A DNA stretch of 32,000 nt from Candidatus Methanoperedens sp. (GTDB lineage Archaea; Halobacteriota; Methanosarcinia; Methanosarcinales; Methanoperedenaceae): positions 1 through 32,000 of the forward strand of contig JAPZAR010000009.1 in the NCBI GenBank assembly GCA_027460535.1. Reading direction: 5' to 3'. A model generated the notes under the pieces. That model was not told the origin of the DNA. It did not search any database and was given only the letters and a program-made list of their open reading frames with translations. Position numbers and translations under genes: made by a program. Every line of letters begins with the position of its first letter. The stretch's first letter is position 1. Of the stretch, positions 1,833-20,306 are shown piece by piece.

Positions 1833-1958
1833 ATGAAAATCATCTCAATCGTTGGCGCCCACCCCCAGTTCATCAAGTGTGCGCCACTGTCCCGGGAGAT
1901 TATAACGGAGCGTGAAGAAATCCTCATCCATACTGGCATACAGGGCAGGGACGGATAA
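1833..1958 (+). pseudogene. wecB: UDP-N-acetylglucosamine 2-epimerase (WecB family), 5' stub of only 41 codons
   Basis: My own translation gives [35 protein letters not shown], then IQGRDG and a stop. The first 35 aa match the conserved non-hydrolysing 2-epimerase N-terminus (MKI..VVGARPQFIK.APVSR...E.LVHTGQHYD). Similarity is lost at HTG, and the ORF was too short for the ORF track. Confidence 0.75.
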
Positions 1959-1984: not shown

Positions 1985-2941
1985 ATGAAAATATTACACA
2001 TCGGTGACGTTGCAGGTATCCCACTAATATTAGCTAAAGCACAAAGAAAATTAGGTTATAAAAGTGATGTACTGTCATATCAGAGGCATCCTTTTGATTA
2101 TGGAGTTGATTATTGTTTTCCATTAAATTCAGGATTTCCTATAAATCATATAGAAAAGATGATAATATTTTCAAAATTCTTAAGTAAATATGATGTATAT
2201 CATTTCCATGGGGGAACATTATTACCAAAAGGGATTGATTCAGTATTATGGAAATATCTAAAAAAAAAATTGGTTATTCACCACCACGGTTCTGATATCA
2301 GATACACTGGTGAAAAATTAATTTATTCAAAATTTGCAGATAAAATTTTTGTTTCTACGCCCGATCTTTTGGAGTGGTCTCCATGTGCTATATGGATACC
2401 AAACCCTATTTCTCTTGATAGTTTTCATTATGTGGGAGTCGAAAATAAAGTCAAATCAGAAAATATTAATATCGTCCATGCACCAAGTAATAGAGCAAAA
2501 AAAGGTACCGAATATATACTAAAAGCCATTAACAAACTGAAAAATGAAGGCTATAAAATTAATCTAATTTTAGTAGAAAACATGCCACATAATAAAGCGA
2601 TTGAATACTATAAAAAGGCAGATATTGTAATAGATCAATTACTAATTGGTTGGTATGGTTTGTTTGCTGTTGAGTGCATGGCACTGGGAAAGCCGGTATG
2701 CGTATATATTCGCGATGATTTGGAATCATATATGCCCTTTAACCCGATAATCAATACCTCATCAACAAATATTGCTGAAAATCTTAGAATATTGATAGAA
2801 GATGGAAGGTTAAGAAAAGAAGTGGGAGATAAAGGTAGAAAATACGTTGAAGAGATGCATGATGCAAAAGAGGTAGCAAAGGAAGTAATCCGTTTTTATA
2901 ATGTGGATGAGATAACAAGTGGATTACACTCCCCAAAGTAG
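1985..2941 (+). CDS. Glycosyltransferase, GT-B fold (group 1/GT4-like)
   Basis: The C-terminal half (VHAPSNRAKKGTEYILKAI...KADIVIDQLLIGWYGLFAVECMALGKPVCVYI) looks like a GT-B nucleotide-sugar binding domain. The gene is AT-rich and a purine-rich (agagga) stretch, a possible weak SD, precedes the ATG. Confidence 0.6.
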   Translation: MKILHIGDVAGIPLILAKAQRKLGYKSDVLSYQRHPFDYGVDYCFPLNSGFPINHIEKMIIFSKFLSKYDVYHFHGGTLLPKGIDSVLWKYLKKKLVIHHHGSDIRYTGEKLIYSKFADKIFVSTPDLLEWSPCAIWIPNPISLDSFHYVGVENKVKSENINIVHAPSNRAKKGTEYILKAINKLKNEGYKINLILVENMPHNKAIEYYKKADIVIDQLLIGWYGLFAVECMALGKPVCVYIRDDLESYMPFNPIINTSSTNIAENLRILIEDGRLRKEVGDKGRKYVEEMHDAKEVAKEVIRFYNVDEITSGLHSPK

Positions 2942-6589: not shown

Positions 6590-7762
6590 TTATTTTCCAT
6601 TTTTTTCACATATTATTTTTTCGTAAACATCCAACTCTTTTTTAATCCGTGTTTCCCAACTTCTTTCTTTTATTATTGTTTTTCTGGCGTTTTTTCCCAA
6701 TGTTTTTCCCAGCTCAGGATTTTCATATAAAAGTTTGAGTTGTTCTGCAAAATAATCTATATCCCCGGATTTTACTAAAAGTCCATTCTCCATATGTCTG
6801 ATTAGTTTGCTTGTCCCACCGCTATCAAATACCACTATTGGTTTTCCAGATGCCATAGCTTCCAGAACGGAGCGATTTAGATTGCTATAAAGGCTTGTAG
6901 CAATAACTACATCAGCAATTGATAAATATTCTGTAATCAGATCTATTGAAACCCCTCCTAGAAATTTTACGTTCTTCTCTAAAGAATATTCTTTAGCTAA
7001 CTTGACTAATTCGTCCTTTAAAGTACCTTCACCTGCAAGAAGAAGACAACTATTGGTTTTGGTTTTATTCAAAAAAATTCCAAATGATTTTATAGCTAAA
7101 TCAATATTTTTCACAGGAATTAAAGAGCTTGTTGATAATATTATAAAATCAGATTCCGTTAATTTGGATTTTTCGATTAACTCTTTATTTTTTGGTTTTG
7201 CTTTAAAAAAATTGGTATCTATTCCATGATAGACAACAGTAACTCGATTTTTCCATATTTTTTTGAATTTTTCTGGGGCTATTGAGCCATCATCCAAAAT
7301 AAAAGCATGATCAGGCTTGAATAATTTTGCCAATATAGCCTCTTGAAAACCAGAAAGTCTTGAATATGCATCATCTGCACCGTGCATCATAGCTACAACT
7401 GGAACCCCCCTTATTTTCTTAAACATAATACATACTGCTGCTGCTTCCATATAATGCACTTGAATCAAGTCAAATTTCTTGGTTTTTCTTAAATATAAAA
7501 AAACTTTAAAAAGATAAATCAACTGATTTAAAGGGGTTACAGGAATATGGAATATCCCTTTTATTGGTTTAAATTTAATTCTTATTATTGGAACTTCAAA
7601 CCTATTATCAAATTCTTTACATTTGCATTCTTCGCCAAAATCAGGTGCAATTATTCGTTGGTCAACATTTTTGTTAATATTTTTTGATAGTTCAATGATA
7701 TGAGTTACAGAACCTCCTTTGATTGGATAAAACTCATATACAATCCTAAGCAACTGTATCAT
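6590..7762 (-). CDS. Glycosyltransferase family 4 (GT-B)
   Basis: C-terminal signature SVLEAMASGKPIVVFDSGGTSKLIRHMENGLLV (E-x7-E type). Overlaps the upstream gene by 17 nt. Confidence 0.85.
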   Translation of the reverse strand: MIQLLRIVYEFYPIKGGSVTHIIELSKNINKNVDQRIIAPDFGEECKCKEFDNRFEVPIIRIKFKPIKGIFHIPVTPLNQLIYLFKVFLYLRKTKKFDLIQVHYMEAAAVCIMFKKIRGVPVVAMMHGADDAYSRLSGFQEAILAKLFKPDHAFILDDGSIAPEKFKKIWKNRVTVVYHGIDTNFFKAKPKNKELIEKSKLTESDFIILSTSSLIPVKNIDLAIKSFGIFLNKTKTNSCLLLAGEGTLKDELVKLAKEYSLEKNVKFLGGVSIDLITEYLSIADVVIATSLYSNLNRSVLEAMASGKPIVVFDSGGTSKLIRHMENGLLVKSGDIDYFAEQLKLLYENPELGKTLGKNARKTIIKERSWETRIKKELDVYEKIICEKNGK

Positions 7763-8702
7763 ACCGTTCTCCTAACTCTTGAGGAGTTATAAATAAAACT
7801 TCTAATTTCTTTTTCCTTGCAATTTCTACAATGTTGTTTAGATTTCTCTTAAAGTTATTTAACGAAAATAGCCCCTTCTCGTCTTTAATGTCTGAGGGAT
7901 GAAAATATGTAGACAAGAAGGCTTCTTCTTCATTACGATTAACGACAATTTTAATTGCATTTTTAAAAAATAATGGATGTTTTGCGATATTTGCTGCTAT
8001 AATTCCTTTTCTCGTTAGAACACGTAAATAGAATGGTATAGGATAAGTTGTTATTGGAATTTCCACAATTTTATGATTATTAGAGGGGTCACTGTCCTCG
8101 ATTTTATAATCATGTTTTGATGGAAAATAAGGATATCTTGATGTGTTTTTCCAATCATATATATTATCAATAGTGCCATTGTTTTTAATCCCCGGAATAG
8201 CGGAGAGATCATTCAAGATACCAAGAGAGTTTAATATGTTCATTGTGTAATTATTATGAAAATCCCAACCCATTCTTGTACTTTTGACTCTGAAAATTTT
8301 AGAAATTTCTTTGTAGCCTTTCTCAAGGCAATGGGATATCCAATTTTTATCTTTTATTTCTTGATACCATATATTTTTTATTTCATTTAATTTCCATAGA
8401 TGAGGATGCCAACCTATTTCATCTCCAGATTTTTCAAATTCATTCCACAATGATACATATTCTCTTACAGGATAGCACCAATCTCCCCATATTATATTTA
8501 TTTGATGATCGGATCTAAGATACCATATAATTTTTGGAGGTTTTTTCTGTTCGTCTTCAAATGTTTTTATCTCTTCTTTTAATCTGATAACAGATTGAAT
8601 AACATCATCCCAAGCACTTTCTTTATTAAAAATAGCTCTTTGATTGACTTCAATTAAGGGATCCGTGTCGCATCCAATTGTAACAAATAATTTTTTTATC
8701 AT
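7746..8702 (-). CDS. Putative CE4-like polysaccharide deacetylase (weak assignment)
   Basis: TIGCDTDP near the N-terminus resembles CE4 motif 1 (Asp pair). GDEIGWHPHLW resembles CE4 motif 2 (GHEIG.H.). I recognise no other family. Confidence 0.4.
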   Translation of the reverse strand: MIKKLFVTIGCDTDPLIEVNQRAIFNKESAWDDVIQSVIRLKEEIKTFEDEQKKPPKIIWYLRSDHQINIIWGDWCYPVREYVSLWNEFEKSGDEIGWHPHLWKLNEIKNIWYQEIKDKNWISHCLEKGYKEISKIFRVKSTRMGWDFHNNYTMNILNSLGILNDLSAIPGIKNNGTIDNIYDWKNTSRYPYFPSKHDYKIEDSDPSNNHKIVEIPITTYPIPFYLRVLTRKGIIAANIAKHPLFFKNAIKIVVNRNEEEAFLSTYFHPSDIKDEKGLFSLNNFKRNLNNIVEIARKKKLEVLFITPQELGERYDTVA

Positions 8703-12621: not shown

Positions 12622-14419
12622 TGAAAAACTCCCTCAACCAAATCTCCAAATTTATCCACTTCCAAATTGTATCTCCTGCGTTCTTTTTATTTTGAATATG
12701 ACTAATAAATATTTTTTCAACATCATTCCATTTCCAATAAGGTCTGTTCTTAAAACTTTCAGAATAAATAATTTCGTTACAAAATTCTACAATCTTTTCA
12801 TTCCTGAAAAGATCATCTACCGGGGCTTCAAATCCGATTTTATCCGTTCTATTTCTTATCATATCTGGAATATGATGATCTATAGCCCTTTTAAAAACCA
12901 CTTTTGTTTCTCCATTGCGTAATTTTTGTTCTGAAGGCAGAGAGTCTGCTGATTCTACAAGCCCAACATCCAGAAATGGAACTCTACTTTCGATGCTCCA
13001 CCTCATAGAGTTTTTGTCTTCCCATCGCAAAAGATGTGGGATCGCTGTAGAAAAAAGTGTTAATCTAAGGCTATCATTAAGGTTCATGGCTTTCCAGCGT
13101 GGGTCTTTATCGACACATACTTTTTCGAGCAGTTCATGGTTTATCCATTTTTTGTCAAATGTTTTCCAGAAGATATATTTCAACGATCCGGGCAGGAACA
13201 AAAATGCAAGCATTGAGTGTGGATAAACATTTTTAAAATTTTTTATATATAGCACCATTTCTTTAATCAACGTATGCCATTTATATTTTTTAAATAATTC
13301 ATAAAAATAATAACTAAAATAATATACATATCCTGCAAATATTTCATCTCCACCCTGTCCATCAAGGAGCACTTTTGCACCTTGCTCATGGGCAAGTTTC
13401 ATTACGCGATATTGGGCATAAGGACTTAATCCTGTTACTGGCTCTTCTTGCGCAATAATAAAGTCGTCCACTTCCTTTAGAAAATCATCAACGTTTATCG
13501 TAGTGAAAAATTGTTGCGTATTTGTATTTCTTCCAACCTCCTTGATATATTTACTCTCATCCTTCGAGCTTCCCGGTGCAACAAGAGAGAATGTAAAAAA
13601 TTTATTTTTTAAAATAGTATCCAGAGTGCATACTATTGCAGAGGAATCAATTCCACCGCTCAAACAACTGCCTATAGGAACATCGGATATTGTTCTTAAC
13701 CTGACACTTTCTATAAATTTATCTCGAATGACTCCATCATTTTTCACGTTTCTAAATTTTAAATGATACCATTGCTGGATATGATGATGATTGGTTTTAA
13801 GATCGTATGTCAGTGTACTGCCTTGTGGCAGCGAGTAGATATTTTCGAAAAATGTATATTGTTTATGATCTTCAAGGTTGAACGCCAGATACTCCATTAT
13901 CGCTCTCTCATTTGGAGCGGTTATAATGTCATGACATAAGATTCCAGTGATCATAGAGGAAAAAATAAATTTATTGTTTTCTATATAATAATAAAGAGGC
14001 TTGATAGAAAATTGATCCCTGCTTAAAACCAAAATATCTTTGTTTTTATCATATATGCAAAAAGCCCACATGCCATTAAATTGATTTACACAGTTTAAAC
14101 CGTACTCCTCATAAGCGTGAATTATTACTTCAGTGTCTGTGTTGCTTTTAAAAACATGCCCTTTTTTCAACAGGTCAGATCTTAACTCTTGAAAATTATA
14201 AACCTCTCCATTATAGGTTATCCATATCGTTTCATCTTCATTAGACATCGGTTGATGGCCTTTTTCGGATAAGTCAATTATCGAAAGTCGGACATGACCT
14301 AATGAGGTCTTCTCATCGACATAAATCCCTTTGTCATCTGGACCTCTATGTTTGGTTACTCCGTTCATATCTTCAATTAGAGCTGTATCTTTCCAATTGA
14401 ATCCATTGATGCCACACAT
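12590..14419 (-). CDS. Asparagine synthase (glutamine-hydrolysing) family amidotransferase, glycan-locus paralogue
   Basis: N-terminal nucleophile MCGINGF. PP-loop CLSGGIDSSAIV. 609 aa. Confidence 0.9.
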   Translation of the reverse strand: MCGINGFNWKDTALIEDMNGVTKHRGPDDKGIYVDEKTSLGHVRLSIIDLSEKGHQPMSNEDETIWITYNGEVYNFQELRSDLLKKGHVFKSNTDTEVIIHAYEEYGLNCVNQFNGMWAFCIYDKNKDILVLSRDQFSIKPLYYYIENNKFIFSSMITGILCHDIITAPNERAIMEYLAFNLEDHKQYTFFENIYSLPQGSTLTYDLKTNHHHIQQWYHLKFRNVKNDGVIRDKFIESVRLRTISDVPIGSCLSGGIDSSAIVCTLDTILKNKFFTFSLVAPGSSKDESKYIKEVGRNTNTQQFFTTINVDDFLKEVDDFIIAQEEPVTGLSPYAQYRVMKLAHEQGAKVLLDGQGGDEIFAGYVYYFSYYFYELFKKYKWHTLIKEMVLYIKNFKNVYPHSMLAFLFLPGSLKYIFWKTFDKKWINHELLEKVCVDKDPRWKAMNLNDSLRLTLFSTAIPHLLRWEDKNSMRWSIESRVPFLDVGLVESADSLPSEQKLRNGETKVVFKRAIDHHIPDMIRNRTDKIGFEAPVDDLFRNEKIVEFCNEIIYSESFKNRPYWKWNDVEKIFISHIQNKKNAGDTIWKWINLEIWLREFFNEQKISRVKS

Positions 14420-14420
14420 G

Positions 14421-15479
14421 CTAACCTAATATCTCATCTTTTATTTTTTCAAGACTCATGGGAAAATCTTCTAAAAACCGAACCATAAATCCAGTCACAT
14501 TTATTTTGTCTTTTAATAACGTCTCTCGTTTCTCGTTCCATTCCCTTTTTATCTCTGGCTTCTGTATAAGTTCGACCGCCTTTTTTATTGCTATATCGGA
14601 ATCATTATAATTAAACATTAGCCCATATTTTTGTTCAAGTTCGATGAAATTACCCATTGTCCCTGCAAGAGATGAAACATAAATTGCAGGAGTGCCCAAT
14701 ATTGCACTTTCAGTAGCCATCGTTGCCCCCTCTCCCATATACAAAGTGGCATAATACAATAAATCATGTATTTTCTCAGGAGGAACTTTAATCTTATAAT
14801 TTTCTAACTCATTATCCAGCCGCCCCTCAGAGGTGATATACACTCGACCATATTTCTCCAGTTCCTTAACCAATCTTATTTTATTTTGTATGCCATGCTG
14901 CCCGACGTCATGGCTCGCGCCCCAGGTAACAAATCGCAAAATGATAAATATATCCTCTTTGCTCAGTCCAAGCTCATCAAGAACAGCAGGGTCTGGTTTA
15001 AAATAATCCGGGTGCAAATAAGCGAGTTCATGATAGCCATTGTATCGAACTTGTTTTTTACCCAGGCTCTTTTTGAAACAGGATGGTGTAATGATGACAT
15101 CTGTAAACGGATATGTGATCGCCTCGGCGAAAGTTGCATGCTCCGTGTCATTAAAGATAATCGCTTTTTTGCCGAGCAATTTGGAAACATGGGCTGCGCA
15201 TGGATTAAGTATTCCTGTTAAGATATCTGGTTTAAATTCTTTTGCAAGAATTAGTAGTTTATAATCTCGAATTAGCCATTCCTTCATTAGTCCAATCTTT
15301 CCCCTCCCCATAGTGGTCAGAACTATATGTGGAATATTATATGCTTTAAGCAAGTCAATAGCTACATCCTTATCCCGTGCTGTGACCATTACCTCATGCC
15401 CATGCTTTTCGAGAGCCCAGATAGTGTTCTTGAAAAAATGAACATGTGCCGGATGCCCGATATCTATTAGTATTCTCAA
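14421..15479 (-). CDS. DUF354 family protein (GT-B/epimerase-like fold), first gene of the island operon; TTG start
   Basis: MRILIDIGHPAHVHFFKNTIWALEKHGHEVMVTARDKDV is the typical DUF354 N-terminus. An AGGAGC Shine-Dalgarno lies 6 nt upstream of the TTG. Confidence 0.7.
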   Translation of the reverse strand: MRILIDIGHPAHVHFFKNTIWALEKHGHEVMVTARDKDVAIDLLKAYNIPHIVLTTMGRGKIGLMKEWLIRDYKLLILAKEFKPDILTGILNPCAAHVSKLLGKKAIIFNDTEHATFAEAITYPFTDVIITPSCFKKSLGKKQVRYNGYHELAYLHPDYFKPDPAVLDELGLSKEDIFIILRFVTWGASHDVGQHGIQNKIRLVKELEKYGRVYITSEGRLDNELENYKIKVPPEKIHDLLYYATLYMGEGATMATESAILGTPAIYVSSLAGTMGNFIELEQKYGLMFNYNDSDIAIKKAVELIQKPEIKREWNEKRETLLKDKINVTGFMVRFLEDFPMSLEKIKDEILG

Positions 15480-15485
15480 TTAGGT

Positions 15486-15491
15486 GCTCCT
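15486..15491 (-). promoter_or_regulatory. Shine-Dalgarno (AGGAGC) for the DUF354 gene
   Basis: The reverse complement of gctcct is 6 nt from TTG 15479. No room or obvious TATA lies between it and stub A, which suggests read-through from upstream. Confidence 0.5.
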
Positions 15492-15507
15492 TTCAATTAT
15501 TCGATCA

Positions 15508-15909
15508 CTAATTAAAAACCATCTCCTCATGAATACAAATCGTCCTGACATCGCATACCTTCCTGAACTCCTTCAACTCCCTCCCGAACATCTCTATCGC
15601 TTTCCCATGATCCCCATTCGCCTTCCCCAATACCTCGTAATGGTACCCCACCTCATGCCCCATACCCTCTATCTCGCGCATGATCTCAGGACGGAAAACA
15701 TTCATCCTGAAATAATACGTCGCCCTTATCCCCAGCTCCTGCTCCACCCTCGCAGTGTTCAGCGCGCTCATGGGTTTGCGGTCGATGTCGTGGCGCATCA
15801 TGGCAAAGCGCGGGGGCAGCTTCCCTGCCTGGAAATATTCCGCCAGCGTGGGCTGCGCCACTGCGGAGCAGAGGGAGCGGAATTTGGAGAGGGTAAAATC
15901 GAGGGGCAT
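15508..15909 (-). pseudogene. Polysaccharide deacetylase (CE4/NodB-like), 5' stub copy A (about 128 genuine codons plus a junction tail)
   Basis: FAMMRHDIDRKP...ATYYFRMNVFRPEIMREIEGMGHEVGYHYEVL carries the CE4 motifs (Asp pair; GHE[IV]G.H). Similarity ends at ..VRTICIH, followed by EEMVFN and a stop at the AT-rich junction. About 60% GC in a spot count. Confidence 0.75.
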
Positions 15910-15985
15910 AAGGTAGCTCTGGTTCAGATCTCTTTGCTTTTCCTAAACATTTTTTAAGCTCCTTATCTGGATATTTCAACGATTG

Positions 15986-16417
15986 TTATGATCTTTTTTG
16001 TTCTAAAAGCGCTTTTTTTACGTCGTCAGGCATTTTGTTAAGGACAAAATCAAACACTTCAACAGCTAATCTTAATGCTTCATCCGCATCTTGTGGATCT
16101 GGCTGAATTACATCTCCAGGGTACCTAAAAGCGATGGCATAAGGTGTCAAAATGGAAGAAATATCCATGATTTGTTCAAATTCAATATCTAATTCCTTGC
16201 ACTGTTCGACCAGGAATGAAAGATCATGGATCTTTTGGAAAGGTGTATCCTTTAAGGTCAGATATGCCTTCAAAGATTTCTCGGCAGCCTGCTGGCAATG
16301 GTATACAGCGGTATCAAGGTAGGGAATATCACCACTTAGGAGACGACGAGCCGAACCAATATCATGTTCAGCTTTTATAAGCCATTGAACTACTTCATTG
16401 ATCCTTGGATCATCCAT
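15986..16417 (-). CDS. HEPN domain protein (toxin component of an MNT/HEPN pair)
   Basis: WLIKAEHDIGSARRLL...AVYHCQQAAEKSLKAYL...HDLSFLVEQC...PYAIAFRYPGD is typical of a HEPN (PF05168-like) helical bundle. It overlaps the upstream MNT gene by 8 nt. Confidence 0.8.
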   Translation of the reverse strand: MDDPRINEVVQWLIKAEHDIGSARRLLSGDIPYLDTAVYHCQQAAEKSLKAYLTLKDTPFQKIHDLSFLVEQCKELDIEFEQIMDISSILTPYAIAFRYPGDVIQPDPQDADEALRLAVEVFDFVLNKMPDDVKKALLEQKRS

Positions 16418-16730
16418 ATAATACTTTACCTTTGGATAGAATATTATTTACAAGTGATGTTCTTACCAATTTATTCTTTTCAACCTCATCATGAGTCTGC
16501 ACAATAATGTCGATAGGATATTTTATACCCTGCAATACTTCATAAATAACTCTTGCTCGCCGATAAGATGGTTGATCTGAATGGGGAAGGATAACAAATA
16601 GGTCTATATCGCTTGATTCTTCAGGTTTACCCCACACATGTGAACCAAAAAGAATAATCTTTTCAGGATGGACTTTTTCAATAATCCTCTTTTTAATCTC
16701 ATCTAATAATTCATTATTAAATTGTCTCAT
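16410..16730 (-). CDS. Minimal nucleotidyltransferase (MNT, antitoxin component of an MNT/HEPN pair)
   Basis: ILFGSHVWGKPEESSDIDLFVILP is the G-S-x(n)-D-x-D pol-beta nucleotidyltransferase motif. 106 aa. Confidence 0.85.
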   Translation of the reverse strand: MRQFNNELLDEIKKRIIEKVHPEKIILFGSHVWGKPEESSDIDLFVILPHSDQPSYRRARVIYEVLQGIKYPIDIIVQTHDEVEKNKLVRTSLVNNILSKGKVLYG

Positions 16731-16786
16731 TATTGTTTATTCTCTTCAGTTTGTTTATTTCTGGTTATCTTGCTATGAATTACTTC

Positions 16787-16795
16787 TATATAAAA
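16787..16795 (-). promoter_or_regulatory. TATA box (TTTTATATA on the minus strand) for the MNT/HEPN cassette
   Basis: Lies about 57 nt upstream of ATG 16730, inside the AT-rich cassette leader. Confidence 0.4.
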
Positions 16796-16894
16796 CAAGG
16801 ATATATAAGTTATGATTCAGACCACTATAAATCTTTAGTATAAGGTATCGAATTAGTGAGCATCGTAGACCTCATGCCGTCTTGGGATATTTCA

Positions 16895-17198
16895 ATCCCC
16901 ATTCGCCTTCCCCAGCACCTCGTAATGATACCCGACCTCATGGCCCACACTTTCTATCTCGCGCATGATCTCAGGACGGAAAACATTCATCCTGAAATAA
17001 TACGTCGCTTTTATCCCCAGCTCCCGCTCCACCCTCGCCGTGTTCAGCGCGCTCATGGGTTTGCGGTCGATGTCCTGGCGCATCATCGCAAAGCGCGGGG
17101 GCAACTTCTCTGCCTGGAAGTACGCTGCCAGCGTCAGGGTGCTGCGCCACAGCGGAGCAGAGGGAGCGGAATTTATGGAGGGTGAAGTCGAGGGGCAT
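16895..17198 (-). pseudogene. Polysaccharide deacetylase 5' stub copy B (about 100 codons, frameshifted)
   Basis: Aligns with 15610..15909 (about 26 substitutions plus a 4-nt indel at about 17129-17137). The indel splits it into listed ORFs 16892..17104 and 16971..17198. Confidence 0.8.
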
Positions 17199-17263
17199 TA
17201 GTCTTTTTCCTCTTTTACAAGGTTTTTTGGATATTCATTTATTCTTCTAATTCTAACATCTTT

Positions 17264-17593
17264 TTTATTAAATTCATAAATTCACGAATACCTGAAGCTG
17301 GTCGTCATTTATTCTGCTCTCTTCTGCATTGTTTTGTGAACCATTATGGAAATGTTTGGGGTAGGTAGAAACTCCTTTCCAGCGTGGGTCAGGGGACGAT
17401 ACATCTTCCCGTTGATTTGCCTTCTTTCCCAGTGATACGAGAAACGTCCGGGTATCTTTGTTGAGAACCAGATATCAGCGATAGAGCCGTCTTTCAAAAA
17501 TACCCTTAGCTTATCATGATAAATATTCGAATCTATTGTAATATCACTGTACTCGGTATCAACAATTCTTTTCAGTTTAAGGATTTCTGCCAC
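17264..17593 (-). pseudogene. TumE/DUF6516-like toxin gene, frameshifted
   Basis: Listed ORF 17309..17593 reads ...GRFSYHWERRQINGKMYR and then loses similarity. Shifting frame at about 17385-17400 gives SSPDPRWKGVSTYPKHFHNGSQNNAEESRINDDQLQVFVNL, with a stop at 17264-17266. That restores the family pattern (YHW...R.DN.P....FP.H.H). Confidence 0.55.
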
Positions 17594-17868
17594 CTAATTT
17601 TCTCCATTGCCTTTAACAGGTCATCTCTTCGGGATTCGAGATAATCAAGTTCCATAAAGTCTTCCATCATATCTTCTTCTTTGATCTCCCCCGTTTTTAA
17701 CTTTTCATCCAGTTCAAAAATTGATTTTATCCCATGCTTTGAACCGATCTTGTATATTTCCGCCTCTATATTTCTCAATTCCTTTTCCAGAAAGGTTCTA
17801 ATGCTTTCGATTTCCAATTTTTCCTTGCTTATGTTGAGAACGTGCGCAACATCTTCAATTATTTGCAT
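17572..17868 (-). CDS. Small acidic coiled-coil protein, putative antitoxin partner of the TumE-like gene
   Basis: 98 aa. It overlaps the downstream gene by 22 nt and sits in the antitoxin-first position. No motif was recognised. Confidence 0.35.
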   Translation of the reverse strand: MQIIEDVAHVLNISKEKLEIESIRTFLEKELRNIEAEIYKIGSKHGIKSIFELDEKLKTGEIKEEDMMEDFMELDYLESRRDDLLKAMEKIRWQKSLN

Positions 17869-17956
17869 ATTTCCTCACATTTCTTTTATTATACCTGAGA
17901 TAAACACACATGGATTAAATTATGCATGGATATTATTAATATCTTATTCTGAATTT

Positions 17957-18124
17957 CTGCTCCACCCTCGCCGTGTTCAGCGCGTTTCAGGTTGCGGTCG
18001 AAGTCGTGGCGCATCATGGCAAAGCGCGGAGGCAGCTTCTCTGCCTTGAAGTACTCTGCCAGCGTCATGGTGGGGCGCCACTGTGGAGCAGAGGGAGCGG
18101 AAACTTGAAAGCGTAAAGTTCCAT
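17957..18124 (-). pseudogene. Polysaccharide deacetylase 5' stub copy C (about 56 codons, degraded)
   Basis: Aligns with the 5' parts of copies A and B (..ccgctccctctgctcc.cagtggcgc...gccatgatgcgccacgac..). It carries the same +4 indel state as B plus a further 2-nt deletion. Confidence 0.7.
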
Positions 18125-18269
18125 TATACCATGCAATCTATAACCACCCTTTTCCAAGAGCGATGAAGTCCAATATGCGCGGTATCAATAAAATTATTCA
18201 CTCCTGATGAACCTGTTGCAGCATATGGTCTTGAAAGCATTTTTCTGGTCATAACTCCTGATTGGTATC

Positions 18270-18797
18270 ATGTTCCTCTTCGGGCACCTGGGCGTCACAC
18301 TTGCGCTTTTTTTCATCCTCGGATATCTTGTTCCCGGATTCAGGAACCATATCAATTACTGGTACGTGGCTCTGGGCGCGGTACTGCCGGATATTATTGA
18401 TAAACTGGTCGGAAGAGTTCTTTTCCCGTATTCTCTTGCCAGCGGGCATCTCATTGCCCATACTCTCGCATTCGTTCTTATCCTCGCAGTTGCAGGATTA
18501 ATAAGATTCAGGGATCACGGGGATGCTCGCATCCTTCTCATTTCGGGCGCTTCCCTCCTCCACCTGCTGGAAGACCGCCTCTGGACACAGCCTGCGCTTC
18601 TTCTCTGGCCCCTCTTCGGATGGGGCTTACCGCATGGTACTCCCCCGGATAACTGGATCGATTATTTCACGATCATGTTCAGGAGATCTATACATCCTGA
18701 ATTCTCTTTTGATTTCGTCGCGGAGGCCGTCGGGTTCGCTGTGATAGCGATCTGTGTACTGGCATGCCTCATTTCCCGGAGAAAAGCAAGAAAATAG
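18270..18797 (+). CDS. Membrane-bound metal-dependent hydrolase (DUF457 / YdjM-like)
   Basis: MFLFGHLGVTLALFF...LPDIIDKL...GHLIAHTLAF...LLHLLEDRLW shows a His/Asp-rich pattern within 4-5 TM helices. Confidence 0.55.
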   Translation: MFLFGHLGVTLALFFILGYLVPGFRNHINYWYVALGAVLPDIIDKLVGRVLFPYSLASGHLIAHTLAFVLILAVAGLIRFRDHGDARILLISGASLLHLLEDRLWTQPALLLWPLFGWGLPHGTPPDNWIDYFTIMFRRSIHPEFSFDFVAEAVGFAVIAICVLACLISRRKARK

Positions 18798-18800
18798 CGT

Positions 18801-20306
18801 TTAAACCGTTCCGCTCCTGCTCTTATCAGCCTGCATGTCAAAGAGCATTGCGAACAGAAGGAATTGCAACCCCATGAGATCAATAAATACCGCAAGCAGC
18901 GGGAGGTTCTGGGAGACCGGATTCTGATACAGCTTCTGAACCAATATCCACAGGCTGAGCAGCATTCCTGCAGGCAGAAGTACCATGCTTGCCACATAGA
19001 AGAACACAAGCGGATGGAAATCCAGCACTATGTACTTGGTCTTGAGGCGCCACAGGAACCCCCTGAAGAGCATCGGGGCAACCTTCAGGATGTATCTGCT
19101 GTATTTTATCTTGGATCTCTCCCTCCCGTATCGCGCTGGCATCACCACGTCTTCTACCCTCATCCCGAATGTATTGAGCTTTACAAGCAGATCGTTGCAG
19201 TACCCGTAATAGGGATAGATGGAATCCAGGTTCAGTATCTCAAGCGTCCGCCTGGATATTGCCGTATAGCCGTTCTGGGGGTCCATCACATGCCAGTATC
19301 CTGTCGCTATCTTCGTGATCATCGTAAGCATCGCATTCCCGAAGAACCTCCATTTGCTCATTCCATGGCGGAACTCCTTGCTTATCAGCCGGTTCCCCTT
19401 GGTATAATCGGCCCTTTCCTCTATAATGGGCATGAGCAGGCGGGGAAGCTGCTCGGGGTCCATCTGGTCATCCCCTGCCATGACTGCCACGATGTCCATA
19501 TCATCCTCAAGGGCCAGTTTATAACCCGAGACAATGGCCGCGCCGACACCGCGGTTCTTATCGTGGCGGACAAATACGATCCTGGGGTCGGAGGCGCCCC
19601 CTACGATCTCAGGTGTCCTGTCGGTACTGCAGTCGTCGATCACGTAGATCCTTTTGACGTATTCCGGGATGCCCCGGAGTGTATCTTCTATCAGCAGTTC
19701 TTCATTGAATGCCGGGACCACGACCCCAATATTATAACCTTTGAGCTGGCTGAAATTGGGTTCTTTTCCGGAATATAAGTATTTTATCTTCATCTGGCTC
19801 CTTTCAGCCTGGGATAATATGTTCTTAATAGACGATCCATTTAAGATAGTTAGATCGATCTTGCTTAATGATTTCGCTGAGAGGGCAAGAAATTCTTCTT
19901 TTTTATTGTAAGGTTTATTTCTATTCAGGAAAAAAAGATTTTCATTACCTGAAGATTTATTGCGGGGTATTGAACTGATCACTATATCATAACACTCATT
20001 TTTTATGGCATTGGCCATCTCCGGTATCCTTTCAGGCCTGCCTTCCGCGTCCATGGTGACTATGATATCCGCCCCGTTCACAGCCCCGAACCCCGTCCTC
20101 AGCGCCCATCCCTTTCCCAGGTTCTTTGGATGCCTGATGACCTCTGCTCCTGCAAGCCTTGCCACCTCTGCAGTATTATCCGTGCTGCCGTCGTCGACGA
20201 CTATTACCCTGTCGGCATGCTGTCTTGAGCGCAGCACCATGCTGCCGATAGAGACCTCCTCGTTAAAGGCAGGGAGAATCGCGGTAATCTTTGGTACATT
20301 TTTCAC
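18801..20306 (-). CDS. GT2 glycosyltransferase (dolichyl-phosphate sugar synthase-like, C-terminal TM helices). The annotated ORF fuses an upstream GT2 stub to it.
   Basis: The second half is a complete GT2: VVVPAFNEE...VIDDCSTDRT...NRGVGAAIVSGY...MAGDDQMDP plus two or more C-terminal TM helices. The first 115 or so aa are a second GT2 N-terminus (ILPAFNEE..VVDDGSTDNT..NLGKGWAL..TMDAEG). An internal Met at 19793 would give a 331-aa stand-alone enzyme. Confidence 0.75.
   Translation of the reverse strand: MKNVPKITAILPAFNEEVSIGSMVLRSRQHADRVIVVDDGSTDNTAEVARLAGAEVIRHPKNLGKGWALRTGFGAVNGADIIVTMDAEGRPERIPEMANAIKNECYDIVISSIPRNKSSGNENLFFLNRNKPYNKKEEFLALSAKSLSKIDLTILNGSSIKNILSQAERSQMKIKYLYSGKEPNFSQLKGYNIGVVVPAFNEELLIEDTLRGIPEYVKRIYVIDDCSTDRTPEIVGGASDPRIVFVRHDKNRGVGAAIVSGYKLALEDDMDIVAVMAGDDQMDPEQLPRLLMPIIEERADYTKGNRLISKEFRHGMSKWRFFGNAMLTMITKIATGYWHVMDPQNGYTAISRRTLEILNLDSIYPYYGYCNDLLVKLNTFGMRVEDVVMPARYGRERSKIKYSRYILKVAPMLFRGFLWRLKTKYIVLDFHPLVFFYVASMVLLPAGMLLSLWILVQKLYQNPVSQNLPLLAVFIDLMGLQFLLFAMLFDMQADKSRSGTV

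Follow-up and report, generated by a model that had tools for sequence, protein, structure and literature searches.

The window is a 32,000-nt stretch of a Candidatus Methanoperedens sp. genome (GCA_027460535.1, contig JAPZAR010000009.1, positions 1 to 32,000). It includes the conserved site that opens the Methanoperedens surface-glycan cluster, where the gene order is GT2 – YdjM – CE4-like gene – DUF354. Here, three co-oriented 5' copies of the CE4-like gene (C, B and A) alternate with two toxin–antitoxin (TA) cassettes, an MNT/HEPN pair and a TumE-family pair that is probably frameshifted. From the outer flank towards the glycan cluster, the features are as follows.

18801–20306, minus strand: GT2 glycosyltransferase (Pfam PF00535), the outer conserved flank
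18270–18797, plus strand: YdjM-family membrane protein (Pfam PF04307), the flank at the array start, divergent from the array
17950–18124 (start approximate), minus strand: stub C, about codons 5–65, from alignments and nhmmer
17572–17868, minus strand: putative antitoxin of the second cassette, 98 aa, MJ0235-like, PF27273 (precomputed Pfam)
17309–17593, minus strand: TumE/DUF6516-family toxin gene, 94 aa, with homologues carrying PF20126
16895–17198, minus strand: stub B, codons 1–106, frameshifted by an 8-nt deletion
16731–16894, minus strand: cassette linker and putative promoter region with TATA-like boxes
16410–16730, minus strand: MNT nucleotidyltransferase, MntA-like antitoxin (Pfam PF01909/PF18765)
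15986–16417, minus strand: HEPN toxin, partner of the MNT protein (Pfam PF05168, E = 4e-25)
15508–15909, minus strand: copy A, the terminal copy of the CE4-like gene, an intact 133-codon open reading frame
14421–15479, minus strand: DUF354 gene (Pfam PF04007), first gene of the variable glycan cluster

In most related loci, a GT2 orthologue directly precedes the deacetylase-like gene, and the YdjM-family gene occupies the same place in loci L005, L009, L091, L096 and L007. DUF354 is the native downstream neighbour of the deacetylase-like gene, a synteny kept in more than 50 loci. The deacetylase-like family itself matches Pfam PF01522 with E = 0.11 and TIGR02764 with E = 0.007, far below the cut-off, and a profile search of the PDB returned no significant match. 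The top 16 Foldseek matches of its AlphaFold model (pLDDT 69, pTM 0.71) are all CE4 enzymes (E = 2e-5, TM 0.41–0.56). We conclude that the family has a CE4-like fold; it is a putative deacetylase.

Both spacers between the copies hold two-gene cassettes, as the initial annotation had described. The MNT and HEPN proteins have clear Pfam matches, and their genes are adjacent with an 8-nt overlap, an arrangement that would place them among type VII pairs; against the NCBIfam MntA model, the MNT protein scores 35.9 bits, below the cut-off of 60. The second cassette pairs a TumE homologue with a PF27273 partner. The TumE-family open reading frame encodes 94 aa, versus 118 aa in relatives, and is divergent over its C-terminal 30%. 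It has no direct Pfam match, and a BLASTP comparison with the bona fide TumE from L006 was not significant. Homologues that carry PF20126 are 80–92% identical to it, over its first 70% only, so the gene is probably frameshifted. Its 98-aa partner, encoded by a gene that overlaps the toxin gene by 22 nt, had no match in our own Pfam and NCBIfam scans; the PF27273 assignment comes from precomputed Pfam.

The cassettes differ from the copies in base composition. GC content is 55.7% in A, 58.2% in B and 59.5% in C, compared with 36.1% in the MNT/HEPN cassette and 38.0% in the TumE cassette, in line with the contrast first estimated (about 60% versus 38%). The MNT protein is 98–99% identical in L009 and L006, and the HEPN protein 93%, an overall range of 93–99% across lineages with only about 58–60% identity between core genes. 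Judged by this near-identity across distant lineages, the cassettes are foreign. In L009, the MNT/HEPN cassette has the same stub junction as in the window, and the two loci are 62–74% identical over the body of the stub, 85% over its final 80 nt, 79–85% over the linker and 90–100% over the coding sequence. The linker contains a box, ACTAAAGATTTATAGTGGTCTGAA (about 16809–16839), that is common to an unrelated MazE/PIN cassette in L004.

Arrays of this kind invite the suspicion of an assembly artefact, with strain reads collapsed into a chimeric contig. Repeats of 170–400 nt at 85–90% identity can break short-read assemblies, and one Logan contig, though identical, ends inside stub B. However, NCBI GCA_027460495.1 and ENA ERZ27247996 match the 4.6-kb array stretch at 100% identity, and a contig in ENA ERZ27248265 is 100% identical over 3.2 kb, spanning every junction. 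The junctions are thus spanned in three independent assemblies. Arrays also occur in the M. nitroreducens reference genome and a dozen other MAGs. The copies can be told apart by about 10% differences plus indels. An artefact is extremely improbable.

All three minus-strand 5' copies are confirmed. Homology of copy A to the family profile covers 15526–15908; it is 91.7% identical to the L091 orthologue (dN/dS 0.32–0.36). It lacks about 350 nt of the 3' part of the gene, owing to an old deletion, and abuts DUF354. Because DUF354 is native there and the A-type junction deletion is old and shared with L091, L094, L002 and L007, the idea that the glycan island had truncated copy A is rejected. Relative to A, stub B has 4 additional nt, and C has the same 4 nt and a 2-nt deletion. 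With relatives as the reference, an 8-nt deletion is common to B and C, at the spot where A has an in-frame deletion of 12 nt. Stub B ends at the 317–326 hot spot (…GGCGAATGGGGAT|, in stub positions). Stub C, which is 80–86% identical to A, carries the 8-nt and 2-nt deletions and ends at the 191–197 hot spot.

Homology had been said to start at the ATG, or within a few nt of it, in every copy. It starts at the ATG in A and B; in C the first 12 nt or so are eroded. In other clades the repeat takes in about 250 nt upstream of the ATG, so the ATG is no fixed boundary. The sequences upstream of the three ATGs are mutually unrelated, as reported. The shortening of the copies with distance from the glycan island is a coincidence: in L005 the lengths read 197, 201, 214, 319, 110 and 326.

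A search for further arrays of truncated 5' ends with TA pairs, suggested at the outset, was productive. Approximately 40 stubs were mapped in 15 non-redundant Methanoperedens loci, all co-oriented and located at this one conserved position. With few exceptions they begin at the ATG or take in the native leader, and TA cassettes separate almost all of them. The M. nitroreducens reference genome has six stubs, the maximum repeat number. Across loci, spacers measure 0.5–1.9 kb and are mostly two-gene TA modules (PIN/VapBC, PemK, HicAB, DUF4258/DUF2283, MqsA, MNT/HEPN, TumE and DUF433/DUF5615), and at least 15 cassette types have arrived at this one site. The closest relative, L091, has an empty site (YdjM–A–DUF354), and cassettes appear to come and go at internal positions too, as between L006 and L098. 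The array is real and widespread, not a one-off, and is built from known processes.

The differences between copies are not those of neutral decay. Over 75 aligned codons, A and B differ by 11 synonymous and 6 non-synonymous changes (dN/dS 0.12), a synonymous excess over the neutral expectation (P = 1.3e-4) that bears the mark of purifying selection; the bias noted earlier stands, although the counts then given (14 substitutions, 8 of them synonymous) differ. Stub pairs in general show mostly synonymous differences, with a dN/dS of 0.11 in L005 and L096. The differences are allelic ones joined by recombination, as opposed to neutral decay after duplication, in line with the earlier proposal that the copies diverged as functional genes and were later brought together. 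The copies do not, however, simply derive from three different donors, since the three window stubs and the L091 orthologue are each other's nearest relatives and share lineage-specific indels, and B combines a local body with a foreign end.

This mosaic structure of B is clear from its divergence along its length. Positions 84–255 are closest to A (94.5% identical, compared with 90.9% between A and L091), while the last 65 nt or so (about 256–318) are foreign: identity between A and B falls to 87.3% over about 255–318, a stretch in which the identity of A to L091 is 95.2% (Fisher P = 0.027). In most other arrays, too, the junction-proximal 65 nt or so are more divergent than the stub body. 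Identity to the terminal copy rises towards it, from 0.80 to 0.90 in the window, from 0.81 to 0.94 in L004, through 0.84, 0.88 and 0.91 in L094, and through 0.68, 0.79 and 0.89 in L096; the gradient is monotonic in these four and L005 is the exception. The stubs closest to YdjM have eroded 5' ends, and those farthest from the terminal copy are the most decayed. The repeated 5' part has a GC content of 57–60% (GC3 0.63–0.76) in array-bearing lineages only, which fits frequent gene conversion. Within genomes, stub similarity is 97.5% in L001, 92–96% in L005, 94.7% in L004 and about 90% in the window.

Junctions between stubs and cassettes cluster on G-rich runs at stub positions 191–197, 304–326 and 343–351. 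The clustering is partial: there are about 30 distinct junction types spread over positions 99–403, of which 9–12 fall within 298–326. After the 305 junction, four different cassettes share a 25–30 nt motif, CTGAGGAAATAAGAAATC. Conversely, one cassette can have two junctions, as with MNT/HEPN in L006 and the window, and with DUF4258/DUF2283, which joins at 110 in L005 and at 229 in L096. Some cassettes, DUF4258/DUF2283 in L005 and L096 among them, start about 25 nt past the stub end. Four lines of observation point to recombination, namely the G-rich stub ends, the advanced decay of far stubs, the same cassette-plus-junction in distant lineages and the mosaic B.

The explanation we regard as probable, by a modest measure, is a sequence of one-sided displacements at the gene's 5' end, started by homology-facilitated illegitimate recombination (HFIR), spread by homologous recombination and retained through TA addiction. 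For T6SS and Rhs arrays, sequential displacement based on HFIR has been put forward (PMC5361080). Two suggestions of the initial annotation are supported: that the 5' end serves as a recurrent recombination anchor, and that one-sided recombination best explains the origin of the stubs. At founding, DNA from a related strain, in which a TA cassette directly precedes that strain's copy of the gene, would recombine homologously within or downstream of the gene. Its non-homologous end would be joined illegitimately in the GC-rich first 400 nt or so of the resident gene, so that the resident 5' end persists as a stub, with the incoming cassette and new gene start downstream of it. Spread, which is partly shown, would involve a fragment that runs from a stub end through a cassette to the next gene start and so has homology at both ends. 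Such a fragment could insert by ‘ends-in’ homologous recombination into any genome or array with the 5' end of the gene, remaking the same junction and duplicating the resident 5' segment. Gene conversion would then keep stub bodies within a genome alike, and recombination between stubs would add or remove cassettes, with TA addiction biasing retention. In the window, C and the TumE cassette would be the oldest layer, followed by B and MNT/HEPN, with A as the current terminal copy.

Several observations sit uneasily with displacement. No founding event has been caught, and L005 breaks the age gradient. In its strict form, displacement is at odds with A, not B, being closest to the cassette-free L091, so that later gene conversion or loss of cassettes in L091 has to be invoked. 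That one cassette can carry two junctions also counts against it, and the divergent junction-proximal segment could equally be an edge effect of gene conversion. Moreover, at least 15 cassette types and the GGGGA-type breakpoints could point to a targeted activity and not to chance. Under a site-specific cassette platform, comparable to integrons or dusA islands, a recombinase encoded elsewhere in the genome would act on attachment sites in the 5' end, each cassette bringing a replacement gene start. The clustering of breakpoints in three short G-rich stretches, the occurrence of different cassettes after one and the same stretch, uniform cassette orientation and the motif common to four cassettes agree with this, and dusA islands do leave a 5' remnant and supply a new 5' end (PMC4482086). 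Yet no recombinase, integrase or transposase domain was found in the window open reading frames of at least 110 aa that were scanned, nor any integrase or transposase within ±10 kb of six annotated loci; the called genes of L091, L092, L094 and L096–L099 likewise include no recombinase. Junctions scatter over several nt within hot spots and many lie outside them, and the repeat may begin at the ATG or as far as about 250 nt upstream of it. There are no attC-like ends; inverted repeats sought across 14000–20000 gave only weak pairs (71–94% complementarity), none at cassette ends, and no core sequence common to left and right cassette ends was found. Conservation in the flanks of the shared MNT/HEPN cassette does not exceed that in its own non-coding linker; over 113 nt, the downstream gene copy in the window matches that in L009 at 83% identity. 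A platform of this kind is unlikely, and so is a dedicated cassette-accretion system in Methanoperedenaceae that would be an integrase-less analogue of integrons with a host-, plasmid- or Borg-borne activity. Such a system would cut or join at GGGGA-type runs in the first 350 nt of genes at glycan-island borders, loading TA and other small defence cassettes, and a second stub family (wecB-like) at the other border may then be a second docking site.

Local tandem duplication by unequal crossing-over, with cassettes inserting independently at the joints and stubs decaying, would account for stubs being usually closest within their genome (97.5% in L001, about 90% in the window) and for the lineage-specific deletions shared by A, B and C. 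It is hard to reconcile with the synonymous-biased differences (dN/dS 0.11–0.12), the foreign end of B, and the same cassette-plus-junction in lineages with core genes about 60% identical, and it leaves the presence of a cassette at every joint unexplained; we consider it unlikely. The low dN/dS between stubs could also mean that they are kept as useful, as short N-terminal proteins or as start signals for promoterless cassettes, in keeping with cassettes that begin about 25 nt beyond the stub end and with A-type open reading frames of 133–139 aa that are intact in several lineages. This is less probable still: frameshifts or internal deletions affect many stubs (B, C and a recurrent ERKGRG frameshift class), promoters upstream of stubs are not conserved, other cassettes have their own TATA-like region, and searches for conserved RNA structure and Rfam matches found neither.

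Integration that leaves a remnant of the target gene is known from tandem islands at tRNA genes. The statement that no described element leaves such a signature is too strong, as the bacterial orphan arrays of Rhs, CDI and T6SS effector–immunity loci, for which the terms C-terminal displacement and sequential displacement are used (Kirchberger et al. 2017, PMC5361080), and the dusA islands (Farrugia et al. 2015, PMC4482086) are analogous. In the former, as here, a conserved gene part is the recombination anchor, modules from relatives displace the resident copy, and the result is a row of co-oriented fragments of a single gene, with a small, horizontally acquired module behind each one whose loss is costly; HFIR is the proposed route of founding and homologous recombination that of later spread, without an integrase. 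The geometry is mirrored, however, with 5' ends left upstream here and 3' tips downstream there. The cargo also differs, being free-standing type II/VII TA pairs functionally unrelated to the anchor gene, in place of toxin tips and immunity genes, and here the host is an archaeon and the anchor a glycan-cluster gene. In dusA islands, the 5' end is replaced and the original kept as a remnant, and repeated events would give several remnants. The window array fits in geometry, although its gene copy downstream of the shared MNT/HEPN cassette is conserved with L009 no better than the linker is. Those islands use a dedicated tyrosine integrase and a single att core, whereas here there is no integrase, about 30 junction types, and inserts of 0.5–1.9 kb.

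Chromosomal integrons (10.1101/2022.08.03.502626) likewise have long runs of co-oriented cassettes with a repeated element between them and prominent TA cassettes, which are thought to stabilise the array. The present array has no intI beside it (it is bounded by YdjM and GT2), no attI and no attC at cassette ends; its repeat is a 100–400 nt piece of a coding gene at 80–97% identity. TA islets and gene-flux hot spots (PMC13617665; PMC5635113) resemble it in their compact TA-only inserts at a recurrent site between conserved genes and in having no mobile-element genes, and homologous recombination in flanking core genes is the suggested route by which TA islets spread (PMC13617665). Ordinary hot spots differ in that inserts bring no partial copy of the flanking gene; here the flank is reiterated and becomes the homology arm.

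The array is a visible record of exchange between lineages of an uncultured and environmentally important methane oxidiser. Displacement of this kind implies that no integrase is needed to build integron-like cassette arrays, plain homologous and illegitimate recombination being sufficient. An array fragment would be an insertion vector into any genome with the anchor gene, which would explain why TA modules pile up at particular sites. The locus marks the border of a variable surface-glycan island, whose diversification is probably driven by viruses, and could be used as a fast-evolving strain marker for Methanoperedens populations. Dozens of ‘hypothetical’ open reading frames of 70–140 aa in Methanoperedens genomes are also explained, as pseudogene stubs.

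Three minus-strand copies of one gene start, reported in the initial annotation, are all recovered by a three-way alignment of the window.

15508-15909, minus strand: copy A, an intact 133-codon ORF, the terminal copy adjoining DUF354
16895-17198, minus strand: stub B, from the three-way alignment
about 17950-18124, minus strand: stub C, from the three-way alignment

Homology had been described as starting at the ATG, or within a few nt of it, in every copy. It does start at the ATG in A and B, and C is eroded by about 12 nt. Further features described for this region stand: the sequences 5' of each ATG in the window are unrelated to one another, the spacers are two gene pairs (MNT/HEPN and TumE-like), and GC content differs between stubs (56–60%) and cassettes (36–38%), with 40% for the whole window. 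The two MNT/HEPN genes, between B and A, overlap, and both have clear Pfam hits. The second cassette, between C and B, is also an overlapping pair, comprising a 94-aa TumE/DUF6516 homologue and a 98-aa partner that carries PF27273. Because the 94-aa protein aligns with its 118-aa relatives over only its first 70%, its gene is probably frameshifted. All three stubs have an overlapping 8/12-nt deletion, and a 6-nt deletion common to A and B is absent from L091, the closest related locus.

The window belongs to a Candidatus Methanoperedens MAG, and its junctions were tested against other assemblies. NCBI GCA_027460495.1 and ENA ERZ27247996 both match the 4.6-kb array region at 100% identity, and ENA ERZ27248265 is identical across its 3.2 kb, which cover every junction. 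One Logan contig is identical too, but breaks inside B. Since other assemblies hold the identical array, an assembly chimera is very unlikely, and with independent assemblies in agreement, artefact is barely credible as an explanation of the locus.

Homologues of stub A in a set of 5.8 billion proteins come nearly all from Methanoperedens and are nearly all short (73–230 aa), with two to four on each of several contigs. When the family was mapped by tblastn and by a DNA profile of five full-length genes, 15 non-redundant loci were seen to contain about 40 stubs. Six of these are in the M. nitroreducens ANME-2d reference genome (L005), five in locus L006, and four each in loci L092 and L094. 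Every mapped stub is co-oriented with its terminal copy. Mapped stubs start at profile position 2 (the ATG), except for those nearest the YdjM gene, whose 5' ends are eroded. The flanks of the arrays follow the order seen in the window, namely GT2, a divergent YdjM gene, the array, the terminal copy, and glycan genes; the arrays of L001 and L096/L097 end in an intact 251-codon gene. The array is a real, reproducible, lineage-wide feature. No published description of it in Methanoperedens or other archaea was found in the literature, coverage of which was incomplete. In a metagenome alignment search, the matches listed were mostly full-length genes of other taxa and not new arrays; further arrays were collected by exact-protein look-ups. 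Viral contigs yielded no stub and one distant full-length match.

In dozens of more distant loci, the order is just GT2, the gene, and DUF354, which indicates that DUF354 is the native neighbour of the stub gene. L091, with 91.7% DNA identity to A, has the empty arrangement YdjM-A-DUF354. By this comparison, C-TumE-B-MNT/HEPN is additional material in the window.

Scans of stub A against Pfam and NCBIfam gave no hit, so the family label depends on a structure model. The full-length relatives, of about 251 aa, match PF01522 and PdaB below threshold and nothing significantly among PDB sequences. An AlphaFold model of the family, from an input alignment of 18 sequences, has a pLDDT of 69 and a pTM of 0.71. 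The best 16 Foldseek matches to this model are all CE4 deacetylases or esterases (best E = 2e-5, TM 0.41–0.56), and ‘CE4-like’ seems a fair label for the predicted fold.

The AT-rich island did not cut copy A short. An old deletion removed the 3' ~350 nt of the gene, and its junction is common to loci L091, L094, L002, and L007. The protein tail of A, EEMVFN, is also that of the intact 139-aa ORFs P0001–P0003. The window, L091 (P0001), and the homologues P0002, P0003, and P0006 all keep the A-type truncated ORF (133–139 aa) intact; between window 15610-15909 and L091 1896-2315, its dN/dS is 0.32–0.36. The 12-nt deletion in A resembles the 8-nt frameshift seen in B and C with a further deletion of 4 nt that restores the frame. 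There are hints that the truncated ORF, or translation through it, still matters. Within the glycan island, a 318-aa ORF (7746-8702, minus strand) matches DUF3473 below threshold, a domain that accompanies polysaccharide deacetylases. It was rejected as a replacement copy, its similarity to stub A not being significant; it might supply the activity lost from the truncated copy.

Across the arrays, the spacers measure 0.5–1.9 kb, and in most of them there is a pair of small genes that overlap and lie on the same strand as the stubs. The families represented are PIN with an antitoxin, MazE/PIN, PemK, UPF0175 with a PIN-like protein, DUF4258/DUF2283, DUF4258/MqsA, HicAB, MNT/HEPN, TumE, and DUF433/DUF5615. 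Other contents are a recurrent C39-peptidase pair, acylphosphatase-like genes, and one SLFN/AlbA_2 protein. In L061 (1-5542), where the gene is only ~50% identical, stubs alternate with DUF4258/DUF2283 and AlbA_2 cassettes, and at L057 9492-10744, a divergent-allele stub lies directly 5' of the intact gene, and no cassette separates the two. Integrase and transposase domains were found neither in the window nor around six annotated arrays. The window has no tRNA, no Rfam family occurs in it or in four array loci, and a search for inverted repeats found none at cassette ends. About 1.5 kb upstream of the L001 stub, a 153-aa ORF (2195-2656, minus strand) resembles an IS200/IS605 TnpA, by eye alone.

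Sequence comparison indicates that cassettes move between lineages. The window shares its MNT and HEPN proteins with L009 at 99% and 93% identity and with L006 at 98% and 93%, compared with only ~58–59% for GT2 and YdjM between the window and L009. A piece of stub also appears to accompany the cassettes. The window and L009 are identical at 62–74% in the stub body, 85% in the last 80 nt of the stub, 79–85% in the linker, and 90–100% in the coding part of the cassette, and the MNT/HEPN stub junction falls at the same nucleotide in both. Stub B itself is a mosaic. Over profile positions 84–255, it groups with A (A–B 94.5%, A–L091 90.9%, B–L091 89.7%), while over positions 255–318 it is the outlier (A–B 87.3%, A–L091 95.2%, B–L091 87.3%; Fisher P = 0.027 for informative sites). 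A homogeneous body and a divergent junction-proximal segment of ~65 nt are also found in most other arrays (98.1% versus 87.7% in L001).

The suggestion that A and B differ as alleles of working genes do is borne out. Their 75 compared codons hold 11 synonymous and 6 non-synonymous differences (dN/dS 0.12, P = 1.3e-4 against neutrality), and stub pairs in L005 and L096 have a dN/dS of 0.11 at dS ~0.43. The arrays show an age gradient, with identity to the terminal copy rising from the outermost to the innermost stub in the window (0.80, 0.90), L004 (0.81, 0.94), L094 (0.84, 0.88, 0.91), and L096 (0.68, 0.79, 0.89). L005 is an exception, since identity is not monotonic along its array. Two cassettes, ordered alike, are common to loci L006 and L098, and in L006 an extra one lies between them, which suggests that cassettes are gained or lost at internal positions too.

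Approximately 30 distinct junction types were recognised, of which 9–12 lie at profile positions 298–326, five at 191–197, and four at 343–351. The clustered stub ends all fall on GGGGA-type runs or beside them, and different cassettes sit behind these ends. The hot spots at 191–197 and 304–326 fall on GGGGA-type purine runs, with stubs ending directly after ...CTGGGGATAAG, ...GGTGCGGGGGAAG, and ...GGCGAAGGGGGAT. Two hot spots are the ends of stubs in the window, B directly after ...GGCGAATGGGGAT (16895) and C at ~197 (~17950). Four different cassettes behind the 305 junction have the motif CTGAGGAAATAAGAAATC in common.

The 5' boundary of the repeat, by comparison among clades, varies and is not fixed at the ATG. 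In the L002/L004/L006/L007 clade, the repeat takes in 70–250 nt of native upstream region, and L005 has two short leader variants common to different cassettes. Retro-copying of a leaderless mRNA was rejected as the cause of the ATG boundary, because other clades duplicate these 70–250 nt upstream. A conserved ~250-nt element, in which a TATA-like TTTATATTC comes after a GC-rich box (GGCGCCTCTGCGATCCCC...), lies 5' of the deacetylase-like gene in other clades (L004 8323-8560 and 9776-10010; L005 12017-12257; L006 3443-3706; also L081, L092, L094, L098, and L007). It is duplicated together with some stubs and is absent from the window. It was rejected as a structured RNA (consensus fold of only -2.7 kcal/mol, one covarying pair, no Rfam hit) and is treated here as a promoter plus leader. 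The first ~330 nt of the gene, the repeated 5' part, are GC-enriched (GC3 0.63–0.76) only in array-bearing lineages (L001, L096, and L012), whereas in array-free lineages (L003, L013, L020, L027, and L008) the gene is uniformly 33–42% GC. GC-biased gene conversion may have left this enrichment as its footprint; frequent recombination as such would fit it too.

One-sided recombination anchored at the gene's 5' end, of the homology-facilitated illegitimate (HFIR) type, had been proposed from the outset and is still the reading we prefer. We hold, with slightly better than even confidence, that sequential one-sided displacement at the 5' end produced the locus, with later spread by way of the stubs. 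Most likely, the mechanism consists of known recombination processes. In the founding events, a donor fragment would have comprised a cassette and then the start of the donor's gene. This fragment would have undergone homologous crossover within or downstream of the gene, with its other end joined illegitimately at a position p in the GC-rich first 400 nt of the resident gene, leaving resident positions 1 to p as a stub. This would be standard HFIR, and ordinary topology would suffice if the crossover lay downstream of p. Spread is partly shown, by the cassette with its piece of stub and by the mosaic in B. A fragment that extends from a stub end across a cassette and into the next gene start carries two homology arms for one and the same gene, in permuted order, and so could act as an ‘ends-in’ insertion vector. 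Its insertion would duplicate the recipient's own 5' segment and remake the donor's junction, which would explain why stub bodies are local and junction-proximal segments foreign, why junction positions are conserved, and why there is no integrase. Gene conversion may then lie behind within-genome similarity and GC enrichment, and toxin–antitoxin (TA) addiction behind these modules being what remains. Repair of an essential gene, with the TA pair preventing loss of the cassette, was set aside as the chief driver, since many genomes have a terminal copy that is itself truncated.

Sequential displacement has its weak points: A, not B, is closest to L091, L005 departs from the age gradient, and the same cassette at times has two different junctions. 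With the hot spots and at least 15 cassette types, there is still scope for a targeted activity. An activity dedicated to loading cassettes at G-rich sites is unlikely, though a second, wecB-like stub family at the other border of the glycan island makes it slightly more plausible. Just as doubtful is a site-specific platform served by a trans-acting recombinase, which would fit the breakpoint hot spots and the common post-junction motif, but for which no integrase was found and to which fuzzy junctions and a variable 5' boundary are ill suited. Purely local duplication with independent insertions is hardly a stronger candidate; the similarity within genomes would follow from it, but the bias to synonymous sites, the mosaic structure of B, and the junctions held in common would not. 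That the stubs are functional is less probable again, given how frequent frameshifts are among them.

Contrary to the initial annotation, which knew of no described element with such a signature, analogues exist. Closest are the arrays of orphan modules at Rhs, CDI, and T6SS effector-immunity loci, for which sequential displacement by HFIR has been proposed (PMC5361080). The Methanoperedens array is their mirror image, as its 5' ends accumulate upstream of the gene; it also differs in its cargo of unrelated TA pairs and its archaeal host. Islands integrating at dusA, with a comparable geometry, replace the 5' end and leave a remnant, but do so by means of a dedicated integrase (PMC4482086). 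Integron arrays have a similar cassette-and-TA look, but their defining parts are not shared. For TA islets at hot spots flanked by core genes, homologous recombination is the suggested means of movement (PMC13617665, PMC5635113), and there, unlike here, the flank is not reiterated.

The second stub family is represented in the window by a 35-codon 5' fragment of a wecB/Epimerase_2-like gene (1833-1937, plus strand), which reads ...HTG and then meets a stop six codons on. It faces into the AT-rich glycan island from the border opposite the array, and is preceded by a similar GC-rich box and TATA (1738-1832). Comparable 5' stubs of 25–36 codons occur in four other Methanoperedens loci (L094 18521-18447, L096 20271-20191, L004 19341-19267, and L001 13200-13093). 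At L094 18700-20348, an internal Epimerase_2 fragment (aa 210-324) sits between ParE-type and MqsA/DUF4258 pairs, upstream of an intact epimerase gene, an arrangement that resembles the stub-and-cassette pattern with a different anchor gene. Lastly, a 180-nt direct repeat of 92% identity (748-927 and 1340-1519) lies inside or across two adjacent surface-protein-like ORFs with LamG and SdrD_B domains.
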